64,000 bases of DNA, taken from NCBI GenBank assembly GCA_043826355.1, contig JBDRQI010000001.1:1-64000 (forward strand), in the 5' to 3' direction. The stretch is from Candidatus Omnitrophota bacterium. GTDB lineage: Bacteria > Ratteibacteria > UBA8468 > MWAK01. Of the stretch, positions 42,393 to 57,909 are shown piece after piece. A program made the translations under genes and the position numbers. A model generated the notes under the pieces. That model was given only the letters and a program-made list of their open reading frames with translations. It was not told where the DNA came from and did not search any database. Position 1 is the first letter of the stretch; every line of letters begins with the position of its first letter.

Positions 42393-44438
42393 ATGTCAGG
42401 CTGGAACCTGTCGGTACGCTACATCAAGGGTGTCGGCCAGAAGAGAGCCGAAATTCTCCAGAAAGTCGGCATTGAAAACTTTTTTGACCTTCTTTATTAT
42501 TTTCCCCGCCGTTACGAAGACCGTAACCGGATCGGCAAAATTTCCCAGGCAGTGCCCGGCGAGAACGTAACCGTGCGGGCCGAAGTTCTTACTGCCGGGC
42601 AGAAAAACGGTTACCGGGGGAAACGTATCTTTACCGTGGCTGTAAACGACGGCACCGGGATTCTTTTCGCCACCTTTTTTAACCAGCCCTATCTTCAGGA
42701 TACCTTTAAACCCGGGAAGGAAGTTATGCTTTTCGGGCGGTTGGAAATTTACAAGGGTGAGAGGCAGATGATCCATCCGGCATTTGAAATTATCGGCGGC
42801 GAGGAATCCGGGCCAGGGGAAACCGGCCGAATCGTCGCCCTTTACCGGGTTCCCGAAGGTTTGAGCCAGCGCAGTTTTCACCAGATTATCTGGACGGCCC
42901 TGGAGAAGACTGGTGATTATCCCAAAGAGGTTGTTCCGTTTTTAATCAGGGAAAATCTGAATTTGGGTAATTTGTGCTATGCTCTTAAGAATATTCATTT
43001 TCCCGCCAGTTTCGTTGACCTGAAGAAAGCGCGGGAATATTTGATATTCGAAGAGTTTTTCCTGCTGACTGCGGCTATGTTTAGACACCGCATGCAGACC
43101 GCCCGCTTAAAGAAAAATGCAGGGGAGGGGCTGTGTCCCCTCCCGGATTTTTTAACCCGTTTTCAGAATCTCCTTCCTTTTTCCCTGAGCGAAAGCCAGC
43201 AGACTGCTCTGGGTGAAATTATAACCGACCTGCAAAAACCGTTTCCGATGCAGCGGCTGTTGACCGGCGAAGTTGGTTCCGGCAAGACGGCCTGTGCCGC
43301 CGGCGCCATCTTTTATACGATACTTTCCGGCGGCCAGGCCGCGCTTCTGGCGCCGACGGAAATCCTGGCCGAGCAGCACTTCCTGACTTTTCAGCGCATT
43401 TTTGCCCGGGCCGGTTGCGAGGTTGCGCTTCTGGTGAACGCAGTCACTAAAAAAGATAAGGATAGAATCAAAAAAGAGCTGGCGGCCGGGAAGATATCGC
43501 TGGTAATCGGTACCCACAGCCTTCTTTCGGAGAAACTGAACTTTACTTCCCTTTCGCTTGCGGTTATCGACGAAGAGCATAAATTCGGCGTTAACCAGCG
43601 GGACCTCCTCGGCGAAAAAGGGAAGGGCGTCCACGTTCTGCTGATGAGCGCCACGCCCATTCCCCGGACCCTCGCGCTTACCCTTTACGGCGGACTTTCC
43701 CTGAGCAATCTTTCGGAACGGGGTCAGCGCAAGGTAGCCACCTATCTCTTTCAAAAAGATGAGCGGGACTCTGCCTATCGGCTCTTTGACACGCTTGTGC
43801 AGCAGGGAAAGTCCGGCTATGTCGTTACCAGCCGTTTGAAAAAGAGCGAGGGATTAATCGGCGCCCAACCGCTCTTCGAAGAGATATCCGACCGATTTCC
43901 GCACTGGAACCCGGCCTTGATCTACGGAGGCCTCTCCCTGCCGGAGAAGGAGAAGGCGATTGATGGATTCCGCAGCGGCAAATATAGGGTGTTGGTAGCC
44001 ACCTCGGTGGTGGAGGTGGGGCTTGATCTGCCGGAGGCAGACATCCTGATGGTGGAAGACGCCGAGCGTTTCGGCCTGTCGCAACTGCACCAGATGCGCG
44101 GCCGCATCGGTCGTAAGTTCCAGGACGCCCTTTGCCTGGTTATCGGAGACGCAGAGTCTGAAACAGGCGCGGAAAGGTTAAATCTTTTCGCTTCTATTAA
44201 TCAGGGAGAGCAGTTGGCGGAAGACGACCTGGTCTTGCGGGGCGAGGGCGAGGTCTTGGGCGAGCGCCAGCACGGTCTGCCGCCGCTGCGCATCGCAAAC
44301 TTACGGAGAGACCTGAAGTTACTGCAGGTTGCGCGCGATTCCGTCCAGGAAATACTTTCAAAAGACCCGAATCTCGTTTCCCATCCGGAGCTTTCTCTTC
44401 GTCTCCAGATGCAGGATATGCGGAATAATAAAACGTAG
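42393..44438 (+). CDS. recG: ATP-dependent DNA helicase RecG, with an in-frame REP
   Basis: GEVGSGKT, APTEILAEQH, DEEHKFG, SATPIPRT, AERFGLSQLHQMRGR. Confidence 0.96.
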   Translation: MSGWNLSVRYIKGVGQKRAEILQKVGIENFFDLLYYFPRRYEDRNRIGKISQAVPGENVTVRAEVLTAGQKNGYRGKRIFTVAVNDGTGILFATFFNQPYLQDTFKPGKEVMLFGRLEIYKGERQMIHPAFEIIGGEESGPGETGRIVALYRVPEGLSQRSFHQIIWTALEKTGDYPKEVVPFLIRENLNLGNLCYALKNIHFPASFVDLKKAREYLIFEEFFLLTAAMFRHRMQTARLKKNAGEGLCPLPDFLTRFQNLLPFSLSESQQTALGEIITDLQKPFPMQRLLTGEVGSGKTACAAGAIFYTILSGGQAALLAPTEILAEQHFLTFQRIFARAGCEVALLVNAVTKKDKDRIKKELAAGKISLVIGTHSLLSEKLNFTSLSLAVIDEEHKFGVNQRDLLGEKGKGVHVLLMSATPIPRTLALTLYGGLSLSNLSERGQRKVATYLFQKDERDSAYRLFDTLVQQGKSGYVVTSRLKKSEGLIGAQPLFEEISDRFPHWNPALIYGGLSLPEKEKAIDGFRSGKYRVLVATSVVEVGLDLPEADILMVEDAERFGLSQLHQMRGRIGRKFQDALCLVIGDAESETGAERLNLFASINQGEQLAEDDLVLRGEGEVLGERQHGLPPLRIANLRRDLKLLQVARDSVQEILSKDPNLVSHPELSLRLQMQDMRNNKT

Positions 44439-44484
44439 GGGCGCCATTTATGGCGCCCGCGGATCGGATAAATCCGACCCCTAC
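44435..44484. repeat. GTAG...CTAC REP doublet
   Basis: gtaggggcgccatttatggcgccc-gc-ggatcggataaatccgacccctac; its TAG is the recG stop codon. Confidence 0.9.
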
Positions 44485-44491
44485 ATAAAAC

Positions 44492-45166
44492 ATGAACCCT
44501 AAAAAAGATTTGCTAATCCTGATTCCGGCCTGCAATGAAGCCCGGTTTATCGCAGAGGTAGTTAAAGGGTCTGCGCCGTACGCGGCTGAGGTGGCGGTGG
44601 TTGACGACGGGTCCACTGACGCTACCGGAGAGGTTGCCGGGTCAGCCGGCGCTACGGTTATCCGGCATCCAGTGAATAAGGGTAAGGGCGCTGCACTTCA
44701 GGCGGGTTTCAACTACGCTTTTGACCGGGGGTATCAGACGGTCCTGACCATGGACGGGGACGGCCAGCACCGGTCGGAAGATATTCCTTTGCTTCTGGAG
44801 CGTTACCAAAAATCCGGCGTCGGTATGGTGGTCGGCTGCCGGCCGCGGAGCCTTAAAAATATGCCGCTGGACCGATTTGTCACCAACTGGTTTACATCGG
44901 CGCTGGTCTCTTTCCTGGCCCGGCAGAGGGTACAGGACAGCCAGAGCGGTTTTCGGGTTATGGATGTAAGAATTGTACCGTCGCTCTTGTTTTCCACCAG
45001 CCATTTTGACACCGAATCGGAGATTCTGGTTGATGCAAGCCGCGCCGGATTTAAGATTACAGAAGCGCCGATTCAAACCGTTTACGGTAGCGAAAAGAGC
45101 AAACAGAATCCCGTGCGCGACACCATCCGGTTCTTCCGTTTCTTCTTCCGCCGGCTTTTTAAATAG
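44492..45166 (+). CDS. GT2 glycosyltransferase (DPM-synthase-like)
   Basis: IPACNE, VDDGSTD, NKGKG, DGDGQH, DSQSGFR. Confidence 0.9.
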   Translation: MNPKKDLLILIPACNEARFIAEVVKGSAPYAAEVAVVDDGSTDATGEVAGSAGATVIRHPVNKGKGAALQAGFNYAFDRGYQTVLTMDGDGQHRSEDIPLLLERYQKSGVGMVVGCRPRSLKNMPLDRFVTNWFTSALVSFLARQRVQDSQSGFRVMDVRIVPSLLFSTSHFDTESEILVDASRAGFKITEAPIQTVYGSEKSKQNPVRDTIRFFRFFFRRLFK

Positions 45167-45269
45167 AAATGTTCCTAATGCAGGGGAGGGGTTACGCCCC
45201 CCTTCCGCCAGAGGCGGACTTTCAGCCTGTGGGCGGGGTTCTTCGCTTATTGCGTTTGCATCAAGTTCT

Positions 45270-46223
45270 ATGTCTCAATTAGATTTCAGCAAAGCCCGCG
45301 AGCAAATGGTTAAAGAGCACCTTGCCGGCCGGGAGATAAAAGACCCGGCGGTTCTCTCTGCGTTTCGCCGTGTTCCCCGGGAAAGGTTTGTGCCGCCGGA
45401 ATATCAGAACGATGCTTACGGAGATTTTCCGCTGCCCATCGGCTTTGACCAGACCATCAGCCAGCCCTATATCGTCGCCCTGATGATAGAGGCGCTTTCG
45501 CTGACAAAGAGCGGTAAGGTTCTGGAAATCGGTACCGGGAGCGGCTACCAGACCGCACTTCTGGCGGAAATCGCCTCTGCTGTCTATTCCGTTGAACGGA
45601 TATCGGAACTGGCGCAGCGGGCAAGGGAAATTTTGAAGGAACTCGGTTATAATAATGTCAGAGTTAAAATAGATGACGGGACACAGGGTTTGCCGGAACA
45701 CCAACCCTATGATGCGATTATCGTCAGCGCGGCTGCAGAGGAGGTTCCGCCGGGTCTTTTGAGACAGTTGGCTTTTAACGGCCGGATGGTCATTCCGGTC
45801 GGCAGTCTCTGGGAACAGGAATTGATTCTTTACCGGAAGACGAAATCCGGCATCGTTTCCCAAAATCTGGGCGGTGTCCGGTTTGTCCCCCTTATACCCT
45901 CAACCCGTCGGGGAGAGGGTATAAGGGGGACAGAAATGGTTAAACAATTAAAGCGTCTGCATCTTTATATCTCCGGTTATGTCCAGGGGGTCGGTTTTCG
46001 CTGGCACGCGGAGAGAATTGCCCGGCGCATCAGCGGTGTTACCGGTTTTGTGCGCAACCTGGACGACGGTCGGGTTGAGGTTGTGGTTGAGGGCGACGAG
46101 GCGCTTCTGCATCAGTTCAAAAAAGGGCTGGAAGAAGGTGTTTTGAGCCGGAACATTGAACACGTTGAAACTATTGACGAACCATACACCGGCAAATTTT
46201 CCGATTTTTCCATCACTTTTTAA
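45270..46223 (+). CDS. pcm: Protein-L-isoaspartate O-methyltransferase fused in frame to acylphosphatase
   Basis: QTISQP, LEIGTGSGY, RFVPL, then a palindrome-encoded linker, then from ATG 45936 the acylphosphatase motifs VQGVGFR and GFVRN. Confidence 0.9.
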   Translation: MSQLDFSKAREQMVKEHLAGREIKDPAVLSAFRRVPRERFVPPEYQNDAYGDFPLPIGFDQTISQPYIVALMIEALSLTKSGKVLEIGTGSGYQTALLAEIASAVYSVERISELAQRAREILKELGYNNVRVKIDDGTQGLPEHQPYDAIIVSAAAEEVPPGLLRQLAFNGRMVIPVGSLWEQELILYRKTKSGIVSQNLGGVRFVPLIPSTRRGEGIRGTEMVKQLKRLHLYISGYVQGVGFRWHAERIARRISGVTGFVRNLDDGRVEVVVEGDEALLHQFKKGLEEGVLSRNIEHVETIDEPYTGKFSDFSITF

Positions 46224-46225
46224 CT

Positions 46226-46345
46226 GTAGGGGTCGGATTTATCCGACCCGGCACCGAAATTATAGGCGGGTTCCCTTTCCAACGCTCTGGAAAGGGGCGC
46301 GATTCATCGCGCCCGAAAAAGCTTGTAGGGGATTTATCGAACCCG
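46226..46345. repeat. REP cluster left of the RAYT
   Basis: gtaggggtcggatttatccgacccg; ggggcgcgattcatcgcgccc preceded by a ccctttcca..tggaaaggg module; gtaggggatttatcgaaccc. Confidence 0.9.
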
Positions 46346-46367
46346 AAAAAAACGTGTTGAACTGTAT

Positions 46368-46799
46368 ATGAACAATTTGCCCAAACGCAAGGAAATTCGT
46401 TTGAAAAACTACGATTATTCTTCAAACGGCTACTATTTTGTGACCATTTGTACTAATAACAAGCAGCCCTTTATAGAGAAACACAGAAAAGTAATTGAGA
46501 AAACTTTGCTAAGTCTTCCCGTAAGATTTCCCGGTGTAACTCTTGATTACTATTGCCTGATGTCCACCCATCTTCATATGATTTTAATTCTTGATAAGGT
46601 TAAAGTTACTTTATCCCAGATAGTGCGAACTTTCAAAGCCTTGGTGACCAAAATCACCGAAGAAAAATCCCTTTGGCAGCGGAATTATTATGAACACGTG
46701 GTAAGGACAGAAAAAGCATTATCCAAAATTCAGGAATATATTCAGAACAATCCTTTGGTAGAACGAATAAAGTTTGAGCAGTTTTATGAAGCGGGTTGA
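46368..46799 (+). mobile_element. REP-associated tyrosine transposase (RAYT / TnpA-REP, Y1 HUH)
   Basis: RLKNYDYS..GYYFVTICT, HLH (HUH motif), WQRNYYEHVVR, EYIQNNP; flanked by inverted GTAG-REPs. Confidence 0.9.
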
Positions 46800-46854
46800 G
46801 AACGACACTCGTCCCTGCCATACGCCGAAGAATAGAAGTGGGTTAATTACTGGC

Positions 46855-46879
46855 CGGGTTCGATAAATCGAACCCCTAC
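46855..46879 (-). repeat. REP right of the RAYT (inverted)
   Basis: cgggttcgataaatcgaacccctac. Confidence 0.9.
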
Positions 46880-46893
46880 AATTATAGAATAAT

Positions 46894-47301
46894 ATGGAAA
46901 CGATACAGGTCAGGACCAGAAGCAGGCAGGAGTTCGTGGATATTACCCGGGAGGTCAGGGAAAAGGTCCGGAAGATGGGCTGGCAGGACGGCGCACTCTT
47001 TATCTTTGTGCCGCACACTACCGCCGGCATCTTTATCAACGAGCACGCAGACCCGGACGTGGCGGAAGACGTTTTGGCTCTCGCTGGCCGGATTGTCCCG
47101 GACCAATTTCCCTATCGGCACTCGGAAGGCAACAGCCCGGCGCACGTCAAGTCGGTCCTGTTTAACAATTCGCTTTACGTAATTTTGGAAAAAGGCGACC
47201 TGGTCCTGGGGACCTGGCAGGGCATATTTTTTGCGGAGTTTGACGGCCCAAGGAACAGAGAGGTGTATTTGAAGTTTATTTCCGGCGGAGGACAAGGATG
47301 A
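46894..47301 (+). CDS. yjbQ: YjbQ/UPF0047 family protein
   Basis: PHTTAG, INE, HSEGNSPAH, LGTWQGIFF..EFDGPR. Confidence 0.92.
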   Translation: METIQVRTRSRQEFVDITREVREKVRKMGWQDGALFIFVPHTTAGIFINEHADPDVAEDVLALAGRIVPDQFPYRHSEGNSPAHVKSVLFNNSLYVILEKGDLVLGTWQGIFFAEFDGPRNREVYLKFISGGGQG

Positions 47302-47603
47302 AAGCAGAAAACATTGACTTAAACAAGAAGATTAAATTTTCCAAAGGCGGGATTGTAAGCAAAGTCATTGCCGAAGGAAAGGAATCAGAAATTTCTCTCT
47401 TCTGTATGGCCAGGGGAACCGTTATGTCCGAGCACACCTCCGGCCGGGAGGCAACGGTTCTGGTTTTGAAAGGGAAAGGCACTTTTAATCTTGCCGGTAA
47501 AGACCTGGCGCTTGCGCCCGGGGTTCTTGTTTTCATGCCGGCCAAGACCAGGCACAGCCTGGCGGCCGAAGAAAACCTGGCATTTTTGCTGTATCTGGCA
47601 TAA
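47298..47603 (+). CDS. Cupin-domain protein
   Basis: SEHTS..EATVLVLKG, MPAKTRHSL. Confidence 0.85.
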   Translation: MKAENIDLNKKIKFSKGGIVSKVIAEGKESEISLFCMARGTVMSEHTSGREATVLVLKGKGTFNLAGKDLALAPGVLVFMPAKTRHSLAAEENLAFLLYLA

Positions 47604-47610
47604 GCGATAA

Positions 47611-49746
<2,136 letters not shown>

Positions 49747-49821
49747 AATTTCTCCCCCTTTTGCGCCGGAGGCGCACTCGCCTCTGGCGAGGAGGAGGGA
49801 GGTGTAGGTGGGGGTGGTAAC

Positions 49822-50433
49822 ATGCTGAAAGTAAAGACGATAGCAGTAGGTTTTTTGGGCACAAACTGTTATCTGGCAGTAGACCCGGAGACCAACCAGG
49901 GTATTATCATTGACCCGGGCGCCGACAGGGAGAAGATATTGAAGGCGGTTGACCGCAGCGGCGCGGTATTTACCGCTGTAATCAATACGCACGGCCATTT
50001 TGACCATATCGCCGCCGATATCATAAAGACAGAACTGGGAGTTCCTCTCTTAATCCACAAATTGGATATGCCCAGGTTTAAGAACGGGTTGGCCGACCAG
50101 ATGCTGCTGCTTGGTTTCGGCCCGCCCGAAGAGATGCCGGAGCCGGATAAGTTCCTGAAGGAAGGCGACGAAATCAGGGTAGGAAACGAAAAACTCGTTG
50201 TTTGGCATACGCCCGGTCACACGCCCGGCGGAATCTCTCTTTTGGGAAAAGGTCTGGTCTTTACCGGGGACACACTCTTCTGCGAGGGTGTGGGCCGGAC
50301 CGATTTGGACGGCGGCAGCGACGAGGATTTAAACAGGTCTCTGGAGCGTCTTCTCCGTCTGCCCGGTGAGATAGTTGTCTATCCGGGACACGGAACGGCT
50401 TCCACCATAGAGCACGAAAGACCCACGATTTAA
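49822..50433 (+). CDS. MBL-fold metallo-hydrolase (glyoxalase II-like)
   Basis: THGHFDH, PGHTPG, GDTLF, PGHG. Confidence 0.92.
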   Translation: MLKVKTIAVGFLGTNCYLAVDPETNQGIIIDPGADREKILKAVDRSGAVFTAVINTHGHFDHIAADIIKTELGVPLLIHKLDMPRFKNGLADQMLLLGFGPPEEMPEPDKFLKEGDEIRVGNEKLVVWHTPGHTPGGISLLGKGLVFTGDTLFCEGVGRTDLDGGSDEDLNRSLERLLRLPGEIVVYPGHGTASTIEHERPTI

Positions 50434-50437
50434 TCAC

Positions 50438-51310
50438 ATGACAAACACCCATCTTACAAAAATAGAAAAATTTTCAGGTTACCTGCTGACCGAACGCGGC
50501 CTGAGCAAAAATACGGTTATGGCTTACCGCCGCGACCTGGAGAAACTTTACGCATTTCTGGAAAAGGAGAATCTAAAAATTTCCGGCCTGACCTACCCGA
50601 TCTTTACTTCATTCCTGATGGAGATGCGCCGGACCCTTTCGCCTGTTTCCTGCGCCCGGACGATGGCGGCGATATCCACCTTTCTGAAGTTCCAACTCCA
50701 GGAGGGGAATTTAAAGAAACATCCCTTGCCTGACCTGGAAAGTCCCCGGCTGGAGAAGAACCTGCCGGAGGTTCTATCCGTCAAAGAAATGGAAGCGCTC
50801 CTGTCTGCGCCCGGCGACTCACCCGCTGGAATCAGAGATAAGGCAATTCTGGAACTTCTCTACGCCACCGGAATGCGGGTCAGCGAACTGGCCGGCTTGA
50901 AAACAGAGGACGTAAATTTGGAAGAAAAACTGCTGCGGGTGAAAGGAAAGGGGAATAAAGAGCGTCTTATTCCCTTCGGCGAACCGGCAGCAAGGGCTGT
51001 CCGGAAGTACCTGGAAATCCGTCCGGCGGTTTGCGAAAACCTGTTTTTGAGCCGGCAGAAAAAGTTGTTGAGCCGGCAGTCGGTCTGGAAGGTTATCCGC
51101 AAGGCGGCCCTGACCGCCGGCCTGTCTAAAAATATCTATCCGCACATCCTGCGCCATTCGTTTGCGACGCACCTTCTGGAAGCCGGCGCCGGTATCCGCA
51201 CCGTTCAGGAACTGTTGGGCCACCAGAGTTTGGCCACCACCCAGATTTACACGCATCTGGACCAAAGCCGGCTCAAAGAGATACATACCAAATATCATCC
51301 GAGACCCTGA
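50438..51310 (+). CDS. xerD: Tyrosine recombinase XerD
   Basis: YATGMRVSE, GKGNKER, PHILRHSFATH, LGH, TTQIY. Confidence 0.88.
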   Translation: MTNTHLTKIEKFSGYLLTERGLSKNTVMAYRRDLEKLYAFLEKENLKISGLTYPIFTSFLMEMRRTLSPVSCARTMAAISTFLKFQLQEGNLKKHPLPDLESPRLEKNLPEVLSVKEMEALLSAPGDSPAGIRDKAILELLYATGMRVSELAGLKTEDVNLEEKLLRVKGKGNKERLIPFGEPAARAVRKYLEIRPAVCENLFLSRQKKLLSRQSVWKVIRKAALTAGLSKNIYPHILRHSFATHLLEAGAGIRTVQELLGHQSLATTQIYTHLDQSRLKEIHTKYHPRP

Positions 51311-52194
51311 TGCGAAAATTATTACTGATATCGCTATTTTGGATTTTATTGGCGCTGCCCGTTTCGGCCGAGACCTGGTACTTTGCGGTGGTGGGCGATA
51401 CGCAGGGGACGAACCTTGCCGAGCCGGTATCTCCCGTCTTCGATAAAATAATCGAGAAGGTGAACGAACTTAAACCTGATTTTCTGGTTCACCTGGGCGA
51501 TAAGGTTTCCGGTTCCGGTAACCCGGAAATTTTAAAGAAGCAGTTTTTAATCTATCGGCAGAAAACGGCAGCGCTTGCCCTGCCTCTTTACGAGGTTCCG
51601 GGCAACCACGACCTGCCGAATAAAGATTGTTATCCGATTTACCGGGAGGTTATTTCTCCGCAGCGCTACTACTCTTTTAACCATAAAGGCTGTCACTTCG
51701 TGGTCTTGAGCAGCGAGGAGAATCCTGGAGTGAACGGTGGTTTGGGTAAAGAGCAGTTGACCTGGCTGGAGGAAGACCTTAAGGAACACGCCGGTCAGCC
51801 CGTATTTACTTTTATGCACCGGCCTCTTTATCGGGGAATAATCCATCCGTATAATTTGGCGGACGCCGGAAACCTGGAGCGGGTTTTGCAGCGTTATAAA
51901 GTCAAGTATCTGTTTGCCGGGCACGAACACCGCTTTGGCATCAGCCACCAGGGCGGAATGGTGGAGTACATCAGCGGCGGCGGCGGAGCGCCTCTGCTCA
52001 ATTTTTCCGAAGAGAGCGGCGGTTTTTACCACTTTCTGCTGGTCAAGGTTGAAGACGGTAAGCCGGAAGTGGATTTCATCAAGATTGACCATCCCAAGAC
52101 CTATCAAGATTTCCGCGGCCTCTGGAAGGCTTTTCAATACCTTCGCGACGTTTCTGAACAGGACAAGAAGGGGGAAGGCGGAGAATTTCCGTAA
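51310..52194 (+). CDS. Secreted calcineurin-like metallophosphoesterase
   Basis: Signal peptide; GDTQ, LGD, GNHD, H, GHEH. Confidence 0.88.
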   Translation: MRKLLLISLFWILLALPVSAETWYFAVVGDTQGTNLAEPVSPVFDKIIEKVNELKPDFLVHLGDKVSGSGNPEILKKQFLIYRQKTAALALPLYEVPGNHDLPNKDCYPIYREVISPQRYYSFNHKGCHFVVLSSEENPGVNGGLGKEQLTWLEEDLKEHAGQPVFTFMHRPLYRGIIHPYNLADAGNLERVLQRYKVKYLFAGHEHRFGISHQGGMVEYISGGGGAPLLNFSEESGGFYHFLLVKVEDGKPEVDFIKIDHPKTYQDFRGLWKAFQYLRDVSEQDKKGEGGEFP

Positions 52195-52205
52195 AATCAG
52201 GGAGA

Positions 52206-52235
52206 TTGAATTAGTTGTTAGATTTGAAGTATAAT
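52206..52235 (+). promoter_or_regulatory. Sigma70-type promoter for eno
   Basis: TTGAAT-18 nt-TATAAT. Confidence 0.55.
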
Positions 52236-52254
52236 AATGATATGGGGCGGATAA

Positions 52255-53547
<1,293 letters not shown>

Positions 53548-53583
53548 ACGTTAATCCGTTGCGTATATTTTATAGGGCAGGGG

Positions 53584-54387
53584 CTATGTCCCCTCCCGCC
53601 ACTCACCCGTATTTCTCACCAACCGGATATATTCTTCCAGATTGATCGTTTCCGGGCGCCGGAGAGGGTCAATCCCGCTTCCGGTCAGAATTGATTTGGT
53701 TTGAATTTTGCTTATATCCAGGTATTTTGCCAGTTGGTTGAGGATAGTTTTCCGGCGCTGGCCGAAGACCGAATGGACCAATTTAGAAAATTCCCGGGTC
53801 TCTGCCGGCTCAAGCAGCGGTTTTAAGTGGGGGGAAATCCTTACCACCGCCGATTCCACCCTGGGCGGCGGCCGGAACGCGCCCTTTTTGATGATTTTAA
53901 CCAGTTCCACCCGGGCCAGTATACCTACCGACAGGGTAAGCGCTCCGTATTCTCTGGTGTCTGGTTTTGCGGCCAGCCGCTCCGCCACCTCCCGCTGGAT
54001 GGTCAGGACCATCATCTCCATTCTGGGAATAAGACCCAGGAGCAGGAAGATAAGGGGTGTCGTAAGATAATAGGGAATGTTGGCCACCACCTTGAAGTTT
54101 TCCAGTTTCTCCAGGCATTCCGGACCGACCTTCAGAAAATCGCCAACTACGATTTCCACGTTGGGAGCGGCGGAAAACTTTTTTCGGAGAGCGGGAATCA
54201 AATCGGTGTCAATCTCAAAAGCGACCACTTTCTTCGCTTTTTTTGCCAGTTCTTCCGTCAGGATGCCGGTTCCGGCTCCAATTTCCACCACAATATCCGC
54301 GGGTGTGACGGCGGCGAATTCGGCAACCCGGATGCCAATCTCCGGCCGGGTTAAAAAGTGTTGCCCCCACCTCTTTTTTGGTCTCAT
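53584..54387 (-). CDS. rsmA: 16S rRNA dimethyladenosine transferase RsmA/KsgA
   Basis: KKRWGQHFL, EIGAGTG, ANIPYY, QRRKT; start set at MRPKK. Confidence 0.95.
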   Translation of the reverse strand: MRPKKRWGQHFLTRPEIGIRVAEFAAVTPADIVVEIGAGTGILTEELAKKAKKVVAFEIDTDLIPALRKKFSAAPNVEIVVGDFLKVGPECLEKLENFKVVANIPYYLTTPLIFLLLGLIPRMEMMVLTIQREVAERLAAKPDTREYGALTLSVGILARVELVKIIKKGAFRPPPRVESAVVRISPHLKPLLEPAETREFSKLVHSVFGQRRKTILNQLAKYLDISKIQTKSILTGSGIDPLRRPETINLEEYIRLVRNTGEWREGT

Positions 54388-54494
54388 CCCATCCGTTTTC
54401 GCCAAAAGACTATGGCAGACACGGTGTAACCCCGCCCCTACATTTTCAGTTGGTAGGCGCAGATTTGTCAAATCAGGTTATAATAGAGACCGAT

Positions 54495-55184
54495 ATGAAA
54501 CTTAACCTTTATCTGGCCCGGTCCGGCGTCGCCTCCCGGCGGAAGTCTGCGGAACTGGTCAAGGGCGGCCGCGTGAGCGTGAACGGCAAAACGGTACTGG
54601 TTCCTTCCCGGGAAGTTGCCGGCAAGGACAATGTAAGCATTGACGGAAAGAAGGTCGTCCCGGAAAGGTTCGTCTATCTCGCCGTAAACAAGCCGGTCGG
54701 TTTCACCTGCACCCTGAAAGACCCCTTTGCCGAAAAGAAGGTGGTTGACCTTGTGCCGCGCTCCATGGGCCGGCTCTATCCGGTCGGCCGGCTGGACCGG
54801 GATTCCTCCGGCCTGGTCATCCTCACCAACGACGGCGATTTCAGCCAGCGGTTGAGCCACCCCAGGTATGAAGCGGAAAAAGAATACCTGGTTGTCGTTA
54901 CCCCGCCGGTCAGCCGCAAAGAAGCCGCTGTTTTAAAAGCGGGAGTGCTTTACGAAAACGAAAAACTGAGCGCTTCCGAGGTGATAATTCTAAAAAAAGA
55001 TTCGGGAAAAAGTACGCTTCGAATTATCCTCAAGGAAGGTAAAAAGCGTGAAATCCGCAGAATGTTCGGATGCCTCGGCCATCACGTATTAACCCTGCAG
55101 AGGGTGAGAATCGGAAACATAATGCTGGGTAAACTTGAACCGGGGAAATGCCGCTTCCTTACCGAGAAGGAAATAATTACTTAA
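54495..55184 (+). CDS. RluB/RsuA-family pseudouridine synthase
   Basis: S4 domain (SRRKS), GRLDRDSSG, EGKKREIRRM. Confidence 0.92.
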   Translation: MKLNLYLARSGVASRRKSAELVKGGRVSVNGKTVLVPSREVAGKDNVSIDGKKVVPERFVYLAVNKPVGFTCTLKDPFAEKKVVDLVPRSMGRLYPVGRLDRDSSGLVILTNDGDFSQRLSHPRYEAEKEYLVVVTPPVSRKEAAVLKAGVLYENEKLSASEVIILKKDSGKSTLRIILKEGKKREIRRMFGCLGHHVLTLQRVRIGNIMLGKLEPGKCRFLTEKEIIT

Positions 55185-55191
55185 CTGATTT

Positions 55192-55236
55192 CCCCTCACT
55201 ATACCTCTCCCCGTCGGGGAGAGGTATAGTGAGGGG
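55192..55236. repeat. Perfect hairpin of the cccctca..tctcccc..ggggaga..gagggg family; probable bidirectional terminator
   Basis: Lies between convergent genes and contains the larC stop; related to 45884-45932. Confidence 0.8.
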
Positions 55237-56365
55237 GTAAACACGCCGTCCTGACTTCATCCATAACCTGCGACAACGGCAGGTCTTCTGCGTCGGCAAT
55301 ACGCTTAATGTCGTCGTATTCCGGGTTCACTTTAATAACTTTACCCCGGTAACGTCCGACCTTAACGGCTACGCGGTGGCTGCGCACTTTCACCTTCTTC
55401 ATTTCCCGTTCCAGCACGATGCGGTCTGTCTCTCTCACTCTTACGCCGAAGGTTGAGGTTTCCCGAAAAAGAACTTTCAGCACCTGGTCCAGGTTTTCTC
55501 TTTTTGTAATGACTTCCAATTTTTGTCCGGGTCGGTTTTTCTTCATCAAGCCCGGCGTGAGTATAAAATCCAGGGTGCCGGCTCTCTGCAGGTTTTGAAA
55601 TACCTTTTCGTAAGCAAAGGGCGGCATATCATCAAGGTTTGTCTCTATGACGAATACCCGGTCCTTTTTTGCGGCCGAAATAGCCTCACCCAGGAAAAAG
55701 GCGAGGATATTGGGCGTGGGTTCGTTTCGGCTGCCGGTTCCGTATCCGACGGATAAAAGGTTAAAAGCCGGAACCGGTTGAAAGTGAGCCAGTTCTGTTA
55801 GAAGAGCGGCTGCGGTAGGGGTGGTGCATTCCGGTTGGTCGGCATCTATCCTGACCGGAAGGTTTTTCAGGATAAGAGATGTGGCCGGCGCCGGAGAACC
55901 GAGGTTGGGGACGGAGCAGTAGAGTTTTTCCACGCCCAGAAGGCGCAAACCGGTCACTGCGGCAACGACGTCAACGATACTGTCTATTTCGCCGATCTGA
56001 TGAAAATGGTCCGGGAGCGTGCCGTGGACTTTTGTTTCGGCTGCGGCCAGCCGTTGAAAGACCGCCAGGATTTTTTTCTTATCCGAAACGTCAAGGCCGC
56101 TCTTTTTAATTAAAGAAAAGATTTCCCGGAGAGGGCGGCCGTGCTCTTTTTGGGAGAGTTCAACCAAAAACCGGCGGGCTGGCCGGGGGTGGCCGATGCC
56201 CGGGTCGTCCCGTTCCTCAACCTTTTCCGAGATGCGGTATCCGGACAGCGGAACTTTTTTCAGTTCCTTTTTGAGGCGGTTAATGGGAAGGCCGGCGTCC
56301 AGCAGTCCGGCGACAATCATATCGCCGGATGCCCCGTTTGTGGTATCGAAATACCCTATCTTCAT
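55199..56365 (-). CDS. larC: Nickel insertion protein LarC
   Basis: GASGDM, HFH, DSIVD, TPTAAA, ETNLDD, MKKNRPG, ETSTFGVR, PEYDD. Confidence 0.88.
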   Translation of the reverse strand: MKIGYFDTTNGASGDMIVAGLLDAGLPINRLKKELKKVPLSGYRISEKVEERDDPGIGHPRPARRFLVELSQKEHGRPLREIFSLIKKSGLDVSDKKKILAVFQRLAAAETKVHGTLPDHFHQIGEIDSIVDVVAAVTGLRLLGVEKLYCSVPNLGSPAPATSLILKNLPVRIDADQPECTTPTAAALLTELAHFQPVPAFNLLSVGYGTGSRNEPTPNILAFFLGEAISAAKKDRVFVIETNLDDMPPFAYEKVFQNLQRAGTLDFILTPGLMKKNRPGQKLEVITKRENLDQVLKVLFRETSTFGVRVRETDRIVLEREMKKVKVRSHRVAVKVGRYRGKVIKVNPEYDDIKRIADAEDLPLSQVMDEVRTACLPPHYTSPRRGEV

Positions 56366-56376
56366 AAAACGGGTTG

Positions 56377-56426
56377 GTAGGGGCACGATTTATCGCGCCC
56401 GCGGGCTTGATGAATCAAGCCCCTAC
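56377..56426. repeat. GTAG...CTAC REP doublet overlapping the yajC stop
   Basis: gtaggggcacgatttatcgcgccc-gc-gggcttgatgaatcaagcccctac. Confidence 0.9.
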
Positions 56427-56729
56427 CTTATGACTGATTGCGGCGCGGCTTATTTTCACCCTGGTGTTGCTCGCGATTTCAAGCACGAAGGTTTCGGCCT
56501 TTACGTCGACAATCTTTCCGAAGAGGCCGCCCAGAGTTACAATCTCATCACCGGGCTTCAGGCTGTCGATCATCGCCTGCTGTTTTTTCTGTTTTCGTTG
56601 CTGGGGCAGAATCAGCAGGAAATAGAAGATAACAAAGATTAAGATAAGAGGCATAAAACCCAAAAGGGTGCTTTGGGGTGCGGCCGGCGCTGCTCCTGTG
56701 GTTGGTGCCTGAGTTTGTCCGAATGCCAT
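56415..56729 (-). CDS. yajC: Preprotein translocase subunit YajC
   Basis: FYFLLILPQQRK, LKPGDEIVTLGGL. Confidence 0.93.
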   Translation of the reverse strand: MAFGQTQAPTTGAAPAAPQSTLLGFMPLILIFVIFYFLLILPQQRKQKKQQAMIDSLKPGDEIVTLGGLFGKIVDVKAETFVLEIASNTRVKISRAAISHKVGA

Positions 56730-56746
56730 ATTCCCCTCCATTGAAT

Positions 56747-56856
56747 GTAGGGGTCGGATTTATCCGACCCGACTTCGGCGAGCTCAATCGAGCCGCGGGC
56801 CCCGTATAGGCGGCTGTTGCCTTCTACGGGGCGGGCGCGATAAATCGCGCCCCTAC
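56747..56856. repeat. REP doublet with nested modules
   Basis: gtaggggtcggatttatccgaccc ... gggcgcgataaatcgcgcccctac; the inner module is the reverse complement of 441-479. Confidence 0.9.
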
Positions 56857-56874
56857 TATTATTATATTATTTTC

Positions 56875-57909
56875 TTACTTCCGGCGCAAGAAACAATCGT
56901 CCGGGATATTCAATTTTTTCCGCAATCCTTCGGTCTCCCGGATGAACCGTCTGGTCAAGGGGTCCCGGTATCCGCTGGCGTGATACCTGCTGTCTCCCCT
57001 TTGACGGGGACGGGTGCCCTTTCCAAAGCTCTGGAAAGGGGGTGCTTGAGGTGGGGGTGAAGGTAGTAATTCCTCCAAGTACGTGCGTGTTTTTTTCCAG
57101 AATAATTCCCGGGTATATTTGCCGAACAAGGAAGCCAGAGCGATTAAAAAAGAGTTATCCTCTCCGTCCCGGAGGTAGGTTATCGTTCCGGCGGTTTTAT
57201 TGGCTCTGCTCAATTGATAAGCGGAATTATTCTTTTCTTCCCGGGTCGGCGTTACGGTACATTGCGGGCCAAAGAGCGCTGAAATAGGTTCCCGGTAATA
57301 CCGCAGGCCCCCTACTTTACCCAGGCAGGCGTGGAATTGGCCGTCTTTCACGCACCGGCGGATGAGGCTCAAGCCGGATTCAATGACCAGGTCTGATTTA
57401 TTCCTGCTTTTCAGTCCTTCATTAAACCGGAATGGACAAAAAAGGAAACAGCGCGGTTTTTCCAGGACAACGCCGCTTTTATCCGTTCTTTTCCTTAACC
57501 GGTCCGCAGTTTTCCGGATATTTTTGCGGCGTTCCGCATTCAACTGCAGGCTAAGGTCATTTTTCCAGCAAAAACAAAACGGGTTATACGTTGTGGTTGA
57601 GGGGTCGATTACTACATTCAAGAATTGGTCTGCGGATTCCGGCAGGAAGCCAAAAGAAAGATAAAAAAAGGCGAGCACGGTCGCCTCAGCCGCCAGTTCC
57701 TTTTTCCGGCTGGCGTTAAAGACCGTTTTACTGTCGCAGACGAGCAATTCGTTTGAATTTGAATGCGGGTCCTTTTTTATCCCGAGTAACTTCCACAGGT
57801 CAGGAACCGGCGCCAAACTTCTGTTTTGCAGTTTCAGCGAGGTGGAAGTGACTACCAGCGGTCCCAGGACAGGCCCGTATCCGTTTTCGTCTATCCCTAT
57901 CAGTCTCAA
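56875..57909 (-). CDS. RNase HII-like protein (divergent), with an in-frame repeat insertion
   Basis: GIDENGYGPVLGPLVV, CDSK, ALASLFGKYTRE, SGY. Confidence 0.7.
   Translation of the reverse strand: MRLIGIDENGYGPVLGPLVVTSTSLKLQNRSLAPVPDLWKLLGIKKDPHSNSNELLVCDSKTVFNASRKKELAAEATVLAFFYLSFGFLPESADQFLNVVIDPSTTTYNPFCFCWKNDLSLQLNAERRKNIRKTADRLRKRTDKSGVVLEKPRCFLFCPFRFNEGLKSRNKSDLVIESGLSLIRRCVKDGQFHACLGKVGGLRYYREPISALFGPQCTVTPTREEKNNSAYQLSRANKTAGTITYLRDGEDNSFLIALASLFGKYTRELFWKKTRTYLEELLPSPPPQAPPFQSFGKGTRPRQRGDSRYHASGYRDPLTRRFIRETEGLRKKLNIPDDCFLRRK

Follow-up and report, generated by a model that had tools for sequence, protein, structure and literature searches.

Small repeats that extend genes, remove their stop codons or sit inside proteins have already been published, as the parts of three accounts available to us describe (PMC3184786, PMC2759123, PMC3733652). 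For example, the normal stop of ECA3499 was taken away by a copy of the RU-1 repeat, according to the portions consulted of two of these sources (PMC3184786, PMC2759123). A separate line of work, likewise represented by partial texts, describes how template switching perfects imperfect inverted repeats (PMC5941160), and quasi-palindrome correction by the same route appears in a second study (PMC8604942). Here we describe a locus in an uncultured Candidatus Omnitrophota bacterium of groundwater (assembly GCA_043826355.1) at which the genes for the isoaspartate methyltransferase Pcm and the acylphosphatase AcyP share one reading frame across a GC-rich hairpin; the window, by which we mean the whole stretch of DNA analysed, is 64,000 nucleotides long. 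The fusion in the DNA is real, being a frame of 317 codons without an internal stop that joins two complete domains (Table 1). We favour, with reasonable though far from full confidence, an origin by accident, in three steps and within this lineage only; the cell probably tolerates the outcome, which would be mainly a two-domain product.

Table 1. Features of the fused locus and of a second repeat copy, in positions of the window.
Feature	Position	Strand	Remarks
Pcm-AcyP fusion ORF	45270..46223	+	single frame, 317 aa; same sequence in the contig of run X1
pcm part (protein-L-isoaspartate O-methyltransferase)	45270..45895	+	through the FVPL motif; native tail and stop gone
Hairpin	45884..45932	.	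13-base centre with an inner stem, enclosed by perfect arms of 18 bp (45884-45901, 45915-45932)
Repeat-derived linker	45896..45935	+	residues 209-222, first codon at 45894; right arm without GTG block
Shine-Dalgarno-like AGGGGG	45924..45929	+	6 bases 5' of the acyP ATG; in the stem
acyP part (acylphosphatase)	45936..46223	+	own in-frame ATG; PF00708
TAA in the +2 frame	45941..45943	+	overlaps the acyP start region; putative former pcm stop, now out of frame
Second repeat copy	55192..55236	.	perfect 21-bp arms; between two convergent genes

Each half of the fused protein matches its family. PCMT (PF01135) covers residues 10-209 with 202.5 bits, against a curated cut-off of 20.3, and spans positions 3-206 of the 210 in the profile; Acylphosphatase (PF00708) covers residues 231-315 with 78.4 bits, against a cut-off of 22.5, and spans positions 2-85 of 85. 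The Pcm half, which is 81-88% identical to Pcm of unfused relatives, retains GTGSGY, SQP, ER, DG and FVPL in invariant or near-invariant columns, and we take these to be its SAM-binding and substrate motifs; its residue 135 is Asp, where 23 relatives have Ala, Val or Gly. The AcyP half carries a QGVGFR loop and a downstream Asn, presumably the functional motifs of an acylphosphatase. Ratios of dN/dS are 0.13-0.20 for the pcm half (four relatives) and 0.13-0.26 for the acyP half (six relatives), similar to those of the flanking genes (0.10-0.17) and of one unfused pair. As a sequence comparison these values show purifying selection on both halves; taken against relatives at a dS of 0.4-0.7, they cannot date the fusion or prove selection on the fusion itself. 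The protein collection holds the 317-aa form and lacks a 95-aa AcyP form.

The two domains meet at the hairpin. The initial annotation had seen the hairpin read through from the end of Pcm into AcyP, and indeed IPSTRRGEGIRGTE runs free of stops into the ATG at 45936. The predicted minimum free energy of positions 45876-45945 is -46.1 kcal/mol, and the inner stem has two mismatches. The hairpin spans 49 bp, but only about 37 of these bases are foreign DNA, since positions 45884-45895 are pcm codons: these first 12 bases of the left arm are identical in the hairpin-less relative L039, and the strains of runs X4 and X5 track the window up to 45895 and diverge after it. With this segment being native pcm sequence, the right arm pairs with codons of the host gene; the derived right arm is the exact complement of the left at 18/18 bases, 12 of them host codons. 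Model confidence is low over residues 212-227, as would suit a flexible linker, in a predicted structure (mean pLDDT 67, pTM 0.56) whose AcyP half is weak because the alignment behind it held no AcyP rows; an Atlas model of the fusion protein has a pLDDT of 0.86 and a pTM of 0.70.

Among relatives with a name, the closest go under Candidatus Ratteibacteria or Omnitrophota, and the order recG, glycosyltransferase, pcm, acyP, UPF0047, cupin, ligA is common to the genome of this window (G000) and to two relatives (G001 and G002). In keeping with the earlier expectation for this comparison, relatives without the hairpin keep two genes, and no fusion was seen in them. In G002, L039, L041 and the X4/X5 strains, all lacking the hairpin, the pcm stop lies 4-8 codons past FVPL and overlaps the acyP start. 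In G001 and L038, a hairpin of a related subtype follows the pcm stop and precedes the acyP ATG; a candidate frameshift or decay of pcm in G001 was rejected, the apparent break being an assembly gap of Ns. Further out, in other genera of the family (G005-G008), some 500-800 bases with another reading frame separate the genes, and in G004 acyP lies directly 3' of the glycosyltransferase gene, pcm being cleanly missing from the locus (L031, G004:C90). No pcm match occurs in the G004 genome (90% complete), and neither a pcm nor an acyP match in G003 (83% complete). Because pcm is absent or not found in G004 and the genome of this window has a second pcm-like gene on contig C31, pcm looks dispensable in this lineage. 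A search of 65 genomes from the phylum matched acyP in 55, and an open frame of more than 135 aa surrounds acyP in G000 alone. The 19 closest Pcm clusters, for which lengths of 174-555 aa were allowed, measure 201-228 aa; none is fused (0/19), and four carry repeat-like tails. As a separate observation, AcyP proteins of the genus have two start types, of about 92 and 95 aa (P0151, P0152, P0155, P0157, P0163, P0166, P0167, P0176), and the longer start is preceded by a hairpin in all three loci known as DNA (G000, G001 and L038).

The starting state is the normal layout of the genus, in which pcm runs only a few codons past FVPL and its stop codon overlaps the acyP start (ATGA). Such an overlap of stop and start is a layout typical of translational coupling. 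In a second step, a GC-rich repeat copy of about 45 bases, usually open in frame, would replace the Pcm tail and leave a longer one that still stops just inside acyP; this step is shown for the repeat family, and we infer it for the present allele. The initial annotation had the insertion itself create the fusion. The repeat does replace the native Pcm tail and stop, but two relatives' proteins with such tails, P0002 and P0011, still stop: they end in ISSPHRGEGKGEGDRNG and VPSSWRGEGMGEEDGDG, respectively, and in each the stop overlaps the AcyP start (for P0011, with AcyP P0157 as its presumed partner, the two being paired by contigs of equal length). Each tail matches the in-frame linker of the window at 6/9 first positions. 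The +2 frame of the window, for its part, ends in GDRNG and a stop, with which P0002 is identical at the last five residues and the stop, and P0011 at two residues. Since the tails match the junction in two different frames, it was most likely a later loss of four bases in the right arm that set the frame, as judged from these alignments. The distance from FVPL to the acyP ATG is 42 bases here against the 46 that we infer from the peptides of P0002 and P0011. In this third step, four bases bulging from the right arm would have been lost, most likely by template switching, so that the arm came to complement the last codons of pcm exactly, the distance fell from 46 to 42 bases and the genes came into frame. 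The two mismatches in the inner stem count against a template switch, which would have erased them had it copied the full arm; simple slippage could be an alternative route to the deletion.

Other members of the repeat family bear on what the junction may have looked like before. Several other copies in the same genome have translations that resemble the tail of P0002. A GTG block closes 24 of the 52 arm readings made for the family, in six cases after a 9-base spacer. The junction has a 5-base spacer and no GTG block, and perfect arms of at least 18 bp are found in only 4/65 copies. A simpler account, in which the repeat arrived in its present form, removed the stop and joined the frames at once, while the tails of P0002 and P0011 are separate insertions at a hot spot, seems to us unlikely. 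In its favour, hairpin-tailed Pcm proteins are scattered: in a 27-row Pcm tree, of which 15/23 inner branches are unresolved, they do not form one group and require five changes, at least two of which well-supported branches make unavoidable, and the sister of P0002 is a protein that lacks a repeat tail. If the junctions of P0002 and G000 had one origin, losses or recombination would have to be assumed. Furthermore, the junction is clearly a hot spot, where Pcm tails of several types and two subtypes of hairpin occur, and a copy at C36:75793 also combines a 5-base spacer with perfect arms. A single step nonetheless leaves unexplained the five P0002-like residues and stop in the +2 frame of the window, a match that lies partly beyond the end of the repeat, in sequence missing from the hairpin-less alleles.

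The fusion was initially taken to be new, which holds for this lineage but not in general, as unrelated Pcm-AcyP fusions exist. Among the best 150 hits from 1.84 billion representatives, four have both domains (P0269, P0270, P0273 and a degenerate P0280). The first three share the domain order and a length of 312-337 aa; their identity to the present protein is 49-53% in Pcm and 35-45% in AcyP, and their linkers are unrelated to it. Such low identity, compared with the 81-88% of unfused relatives, together with the unrelated linkers points to independent origins. All four members of the P0269 cluster (with P0418-P0420) carry the fusion at a length of 312 aa; identity among them goes as low as 91%, and no Met precedes the AcyP domain. 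The candidate claim that the fusion is unique in nature was dropped; the 21 longer AcyP hits included no Pcm fusion, but an exhaustive search found some. On this sequence record the Pcm-AcyP architecture is viable and not unique, and that it arose independently elsewhere, and was in one case retained down to 91% identity, speaks against a join wholly devoid of meaning.

As evidence for a shared function, however, the other fusions are weak. A rival reading is that selection favoured the fusion, with Pcm and acylphosphatase cooperating in the control of protein damage and tethering being of help; for instance, acyl-phosphate groups that promote the formation of isoaspartate might be removed and the isoaspartate then repaired. 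That four unrelated representatives at 50% identity carry both domains among those best 150 hits would fit this idea, as would the retention of the fusion in the four P0269 cluster members without a Met ahead of AcyP, and the purifying selection on both halves. We nevertheless consider it quite improbable. The C-terminus of Pcm is also joined to unrelated domains, at least six in number, namely archease, DUF421, YkuD, nitroreductase, GNAT and periplasmic binding domains (16 proteins scanned), acyP lies nearby in 0/78 unrelated pcm loci (flanks of up to 3 kb, some shorter), no Pcm-AcyP cluster appears among the Atlas hits, and G004 has acyP without pcm; the dN/dS values, at a dS of 0.4-0.7, neither date the fusion nor show selection on it. 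A literature search on isoaspartate with acylphosphatase, conducted mostly outside the subscription journals, returned no paper on this fusion.

The accident favoured above is expected to act on translation as well. A 16S 3'-end motif was located on contig C28, and the AGGGGG of the repeat, proposed at first as a ribosome-binding site for independent AcyP, is a good Shine-Dalgarno match; it is, however, fully paired in the folding model, with an unpaired probability of 0.0. Opening the acyP start region is predicted to cost 35.8 kcal/mol; four unfused relatives need 13.8-24.5, and nine other genes of the window 3.5-10.5. Under this model separate translation of AcyP is probably weak. The overlap in relatives allows a ribosome that has just terminated to start again; here, no ribosome would terminate at the AcyP start any longer, the binding site is paired, free AcyP would be scarce, and only an opening driven by translation would remain. 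With the restart route lost, mostly fusion protein is to be expected, and the predicted product is likely to be mainly a two-domain protein, in which a flexible linker of 14 residues connects two intact enzymes.

It might be supposed instead that the DNA is fused while the proteins are mostly separate, pcm ribosomes melting the hairpin to permit a start at 45936 or slipping into a frame that stops at once. The ATG and the good Shine-Dalgarno match at its 6-base spacing are kept, both other frames stop within 9-15 codons, and upstream translation can open a buried start, as the consulted part of one study reports (PMC6728339). Against this stand the opening cost, which exceeds that of the four unfused relatives, and codons 191-222, in which no slippery heptamer of the form X XXY YYZ was found; moreover, the route could yield free AcyP but not Pcm of native length. 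We therefore regard mostly separate products as very unlikely.

GC-rich hairpins are hard to sequence. A 1100-base contig of run X1 spans positions 45198-46297 with no differing letter and no gap; its depth is 46.3, and its neighbours have 47.6 and 45.6. The genome itself may come from X1, and the comparison is with assembled contigs, not raw reads, so that it is not independent support. Among four runs compared, of nine listed, X1 alone covers the fused junction, X2 giving no cover and X4/X5 representing related unfused strains. An assembly error is unlikely, and the specific idea that one at the strong hairpin conceals a stop is hardly credible: one sample, possibly the source of the genome, covers the junction, but its separately built contig is identical and has the usual depth, and the entries for X1 include neither another joint nor an indel.

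The hairpin belongs to a family that is spread over the genome. Its core pattern occurs at 65 places in the 1.87-Mb G000 genome against 1, 3, 2, 1 and 3 in five shuffles, an excess that argues for a family and not chance. As was noted at first, a second copy lies in the window itself. This copy has a 15-base exact core in common with the junction hairpin, and a larC-like gene on the minus strand (55199-56386) takes its final codons from it. Copies within Pfam-matched ORFs number 44 of the 65, of which 33 are interior (the junction included), eight C-terminal and three N-terminal, the last with gene starts that are possibly miscalled; 38 of 42 scanned copy-bearing ORFs match a Pfam family. The genes concerned include polA (three copies), gatB, ispG, mfd, mnmE, queA, aroA, alr, hom and hypD, and from a reading of their Pfam architectures none of these ORFs, besides the junction, appears to join two normally separate genes at the repeat. 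The intragenic share of so small a palindrome seems very high, and many of its hosts are housekeeping genes. In the three cases compared, pcm-acyP, polA (four relatives) and recG (two relatives), the inserts are missing from orthologues of relatives. In PolA (L150, G000:C26:3440-6139 compared with L162-L165) and RecG (L032, L033), differing repeat peptides occupy the same loops in different congeners, which in these alignments suggests repeated gain at permissive sites. A candidate likeness of the family to the BoxC repeat of E. coli was taken up as a lead; the best blastn matches fall in unannotated sequence, with E values of 1-5 at 78-80% identity, and no DUF559 gene was found in G000 (86% complete). 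A search of Rfam over positions 44000-57000 returned sub-threshold hairpin matches only.

Other repeats and mobile sequences surround the locus. A Y1 (RAYT-like) transposase gene (46368-46799) directly follows acyP, with inverted GTAG-headed repeats on both sides (46226-46877); it is present in L038 (87% identity) and absent from this place in G001, G002 and G004. Another GC-rich repeat lies at about 45180-45240, between the glycosyltransferase gene and pcm, where the X1 contigs break and the summed depth is 206. The ORF at 56875-57909 has a proline/glycine-rich stretch near its C-terminus that looks derived from a repeat.

Taken at its plainest, what happened here was probably an accident that a single genome tolerates. 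Its added value lies in the allele series that relatives display and in a route that probably took two steps, the repeat-in-frame kind of fusion being known already. Likely intermediates survive in relatives, from coupled genes through an intergenic hairpin and a repeat-extended tail to the fusion, so that the idea of small repeats building proteins can be tested at one junction. For annotation, the locus is a warning that an acylphosphatase can be concealed within a Pcm call. The Pcm-AcyP fusions that arose separately hint, though weakly, at a link in function. A bolder reading, to which we give little credence, is that in this lineage the repeat serves to switch frames where genes overlap: insertion would extend the upstream protein, self-correction of the hairpin would flip the pair to and fro between the coupled and the fused state, and a Pcm-AcyP fusion reached separately by unrelated bacteria, and kept in one of their lineages, would have been recreated here. 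Were it true, it would suggest that the removal of acyl-phosphates and the repair of isoaspartate are partners in a way so far unrecognised.

Comparison with known systems places the two enzymes, the hairpin and the route in turn. The Pcm half matches solved Pcm/PIMT structures over its full length (PF01135; PDB 3lbf, 4l7v, 1jg1), as the AcyP half does acylphosphatases (PF00708; PDB 2bjd, 2gv1), while none of the 39 matched chains holds both domains; Pcm/PIMT has a short native tail, in place of which the fusion has the repeat-encoded linker. The GTAG/CGTC REPs associated with RAYT are likewise short, GC-rich, multicopy hairpins, some of them intragenic or overlapping gene ends, in the part of the literature available to us (PMC3733652). 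Unlike them, the present family has no GTAG tag, and neither 45884-45932 nor 55192-55236 bears a GTAG or CGTC tag at either end, and unlike in RAYT-flanking REPs, the repeat flanking the Y1 transposase gene differs from the junction hairpin. In quasi-palindrome correction, a clustered change in one arm perfects an inverted repeat, as may have happened here; the published cases, in the excerpts at hand, concern repeats outside coding sequence in Proteobacteria and, in yeast, changes of amino acids (PMC5941160, PMC8604942), whereas the change proposed here would be one of frame that joins two genes, with one arm partly host coding sequence. A search for repeats that bridge two genes, again mostly outside the subscription journals, returned no paper on this fusion. 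The repeat is also akin to RPE of Rickettsia, RU/ERIC of enterobacteria and BRE, which are palindromes open in frame, inside genes or extending their 3' ends, as the consulted portions of two accounts relate (PMC3184786, PMC2759123). The present repeat behaves like RPE in being a multicopy palindrome in frame within known genes (44/65 copies), although RPE measure 105-146 bases in the part available of one source (PMC3184786) and this repeat only about 45. Finally, what those partial accounts of RPE, RU/ERIC and BRE describe are extensions and internal inserts, whereas at this junction the repeat bridges two complete enzymes.
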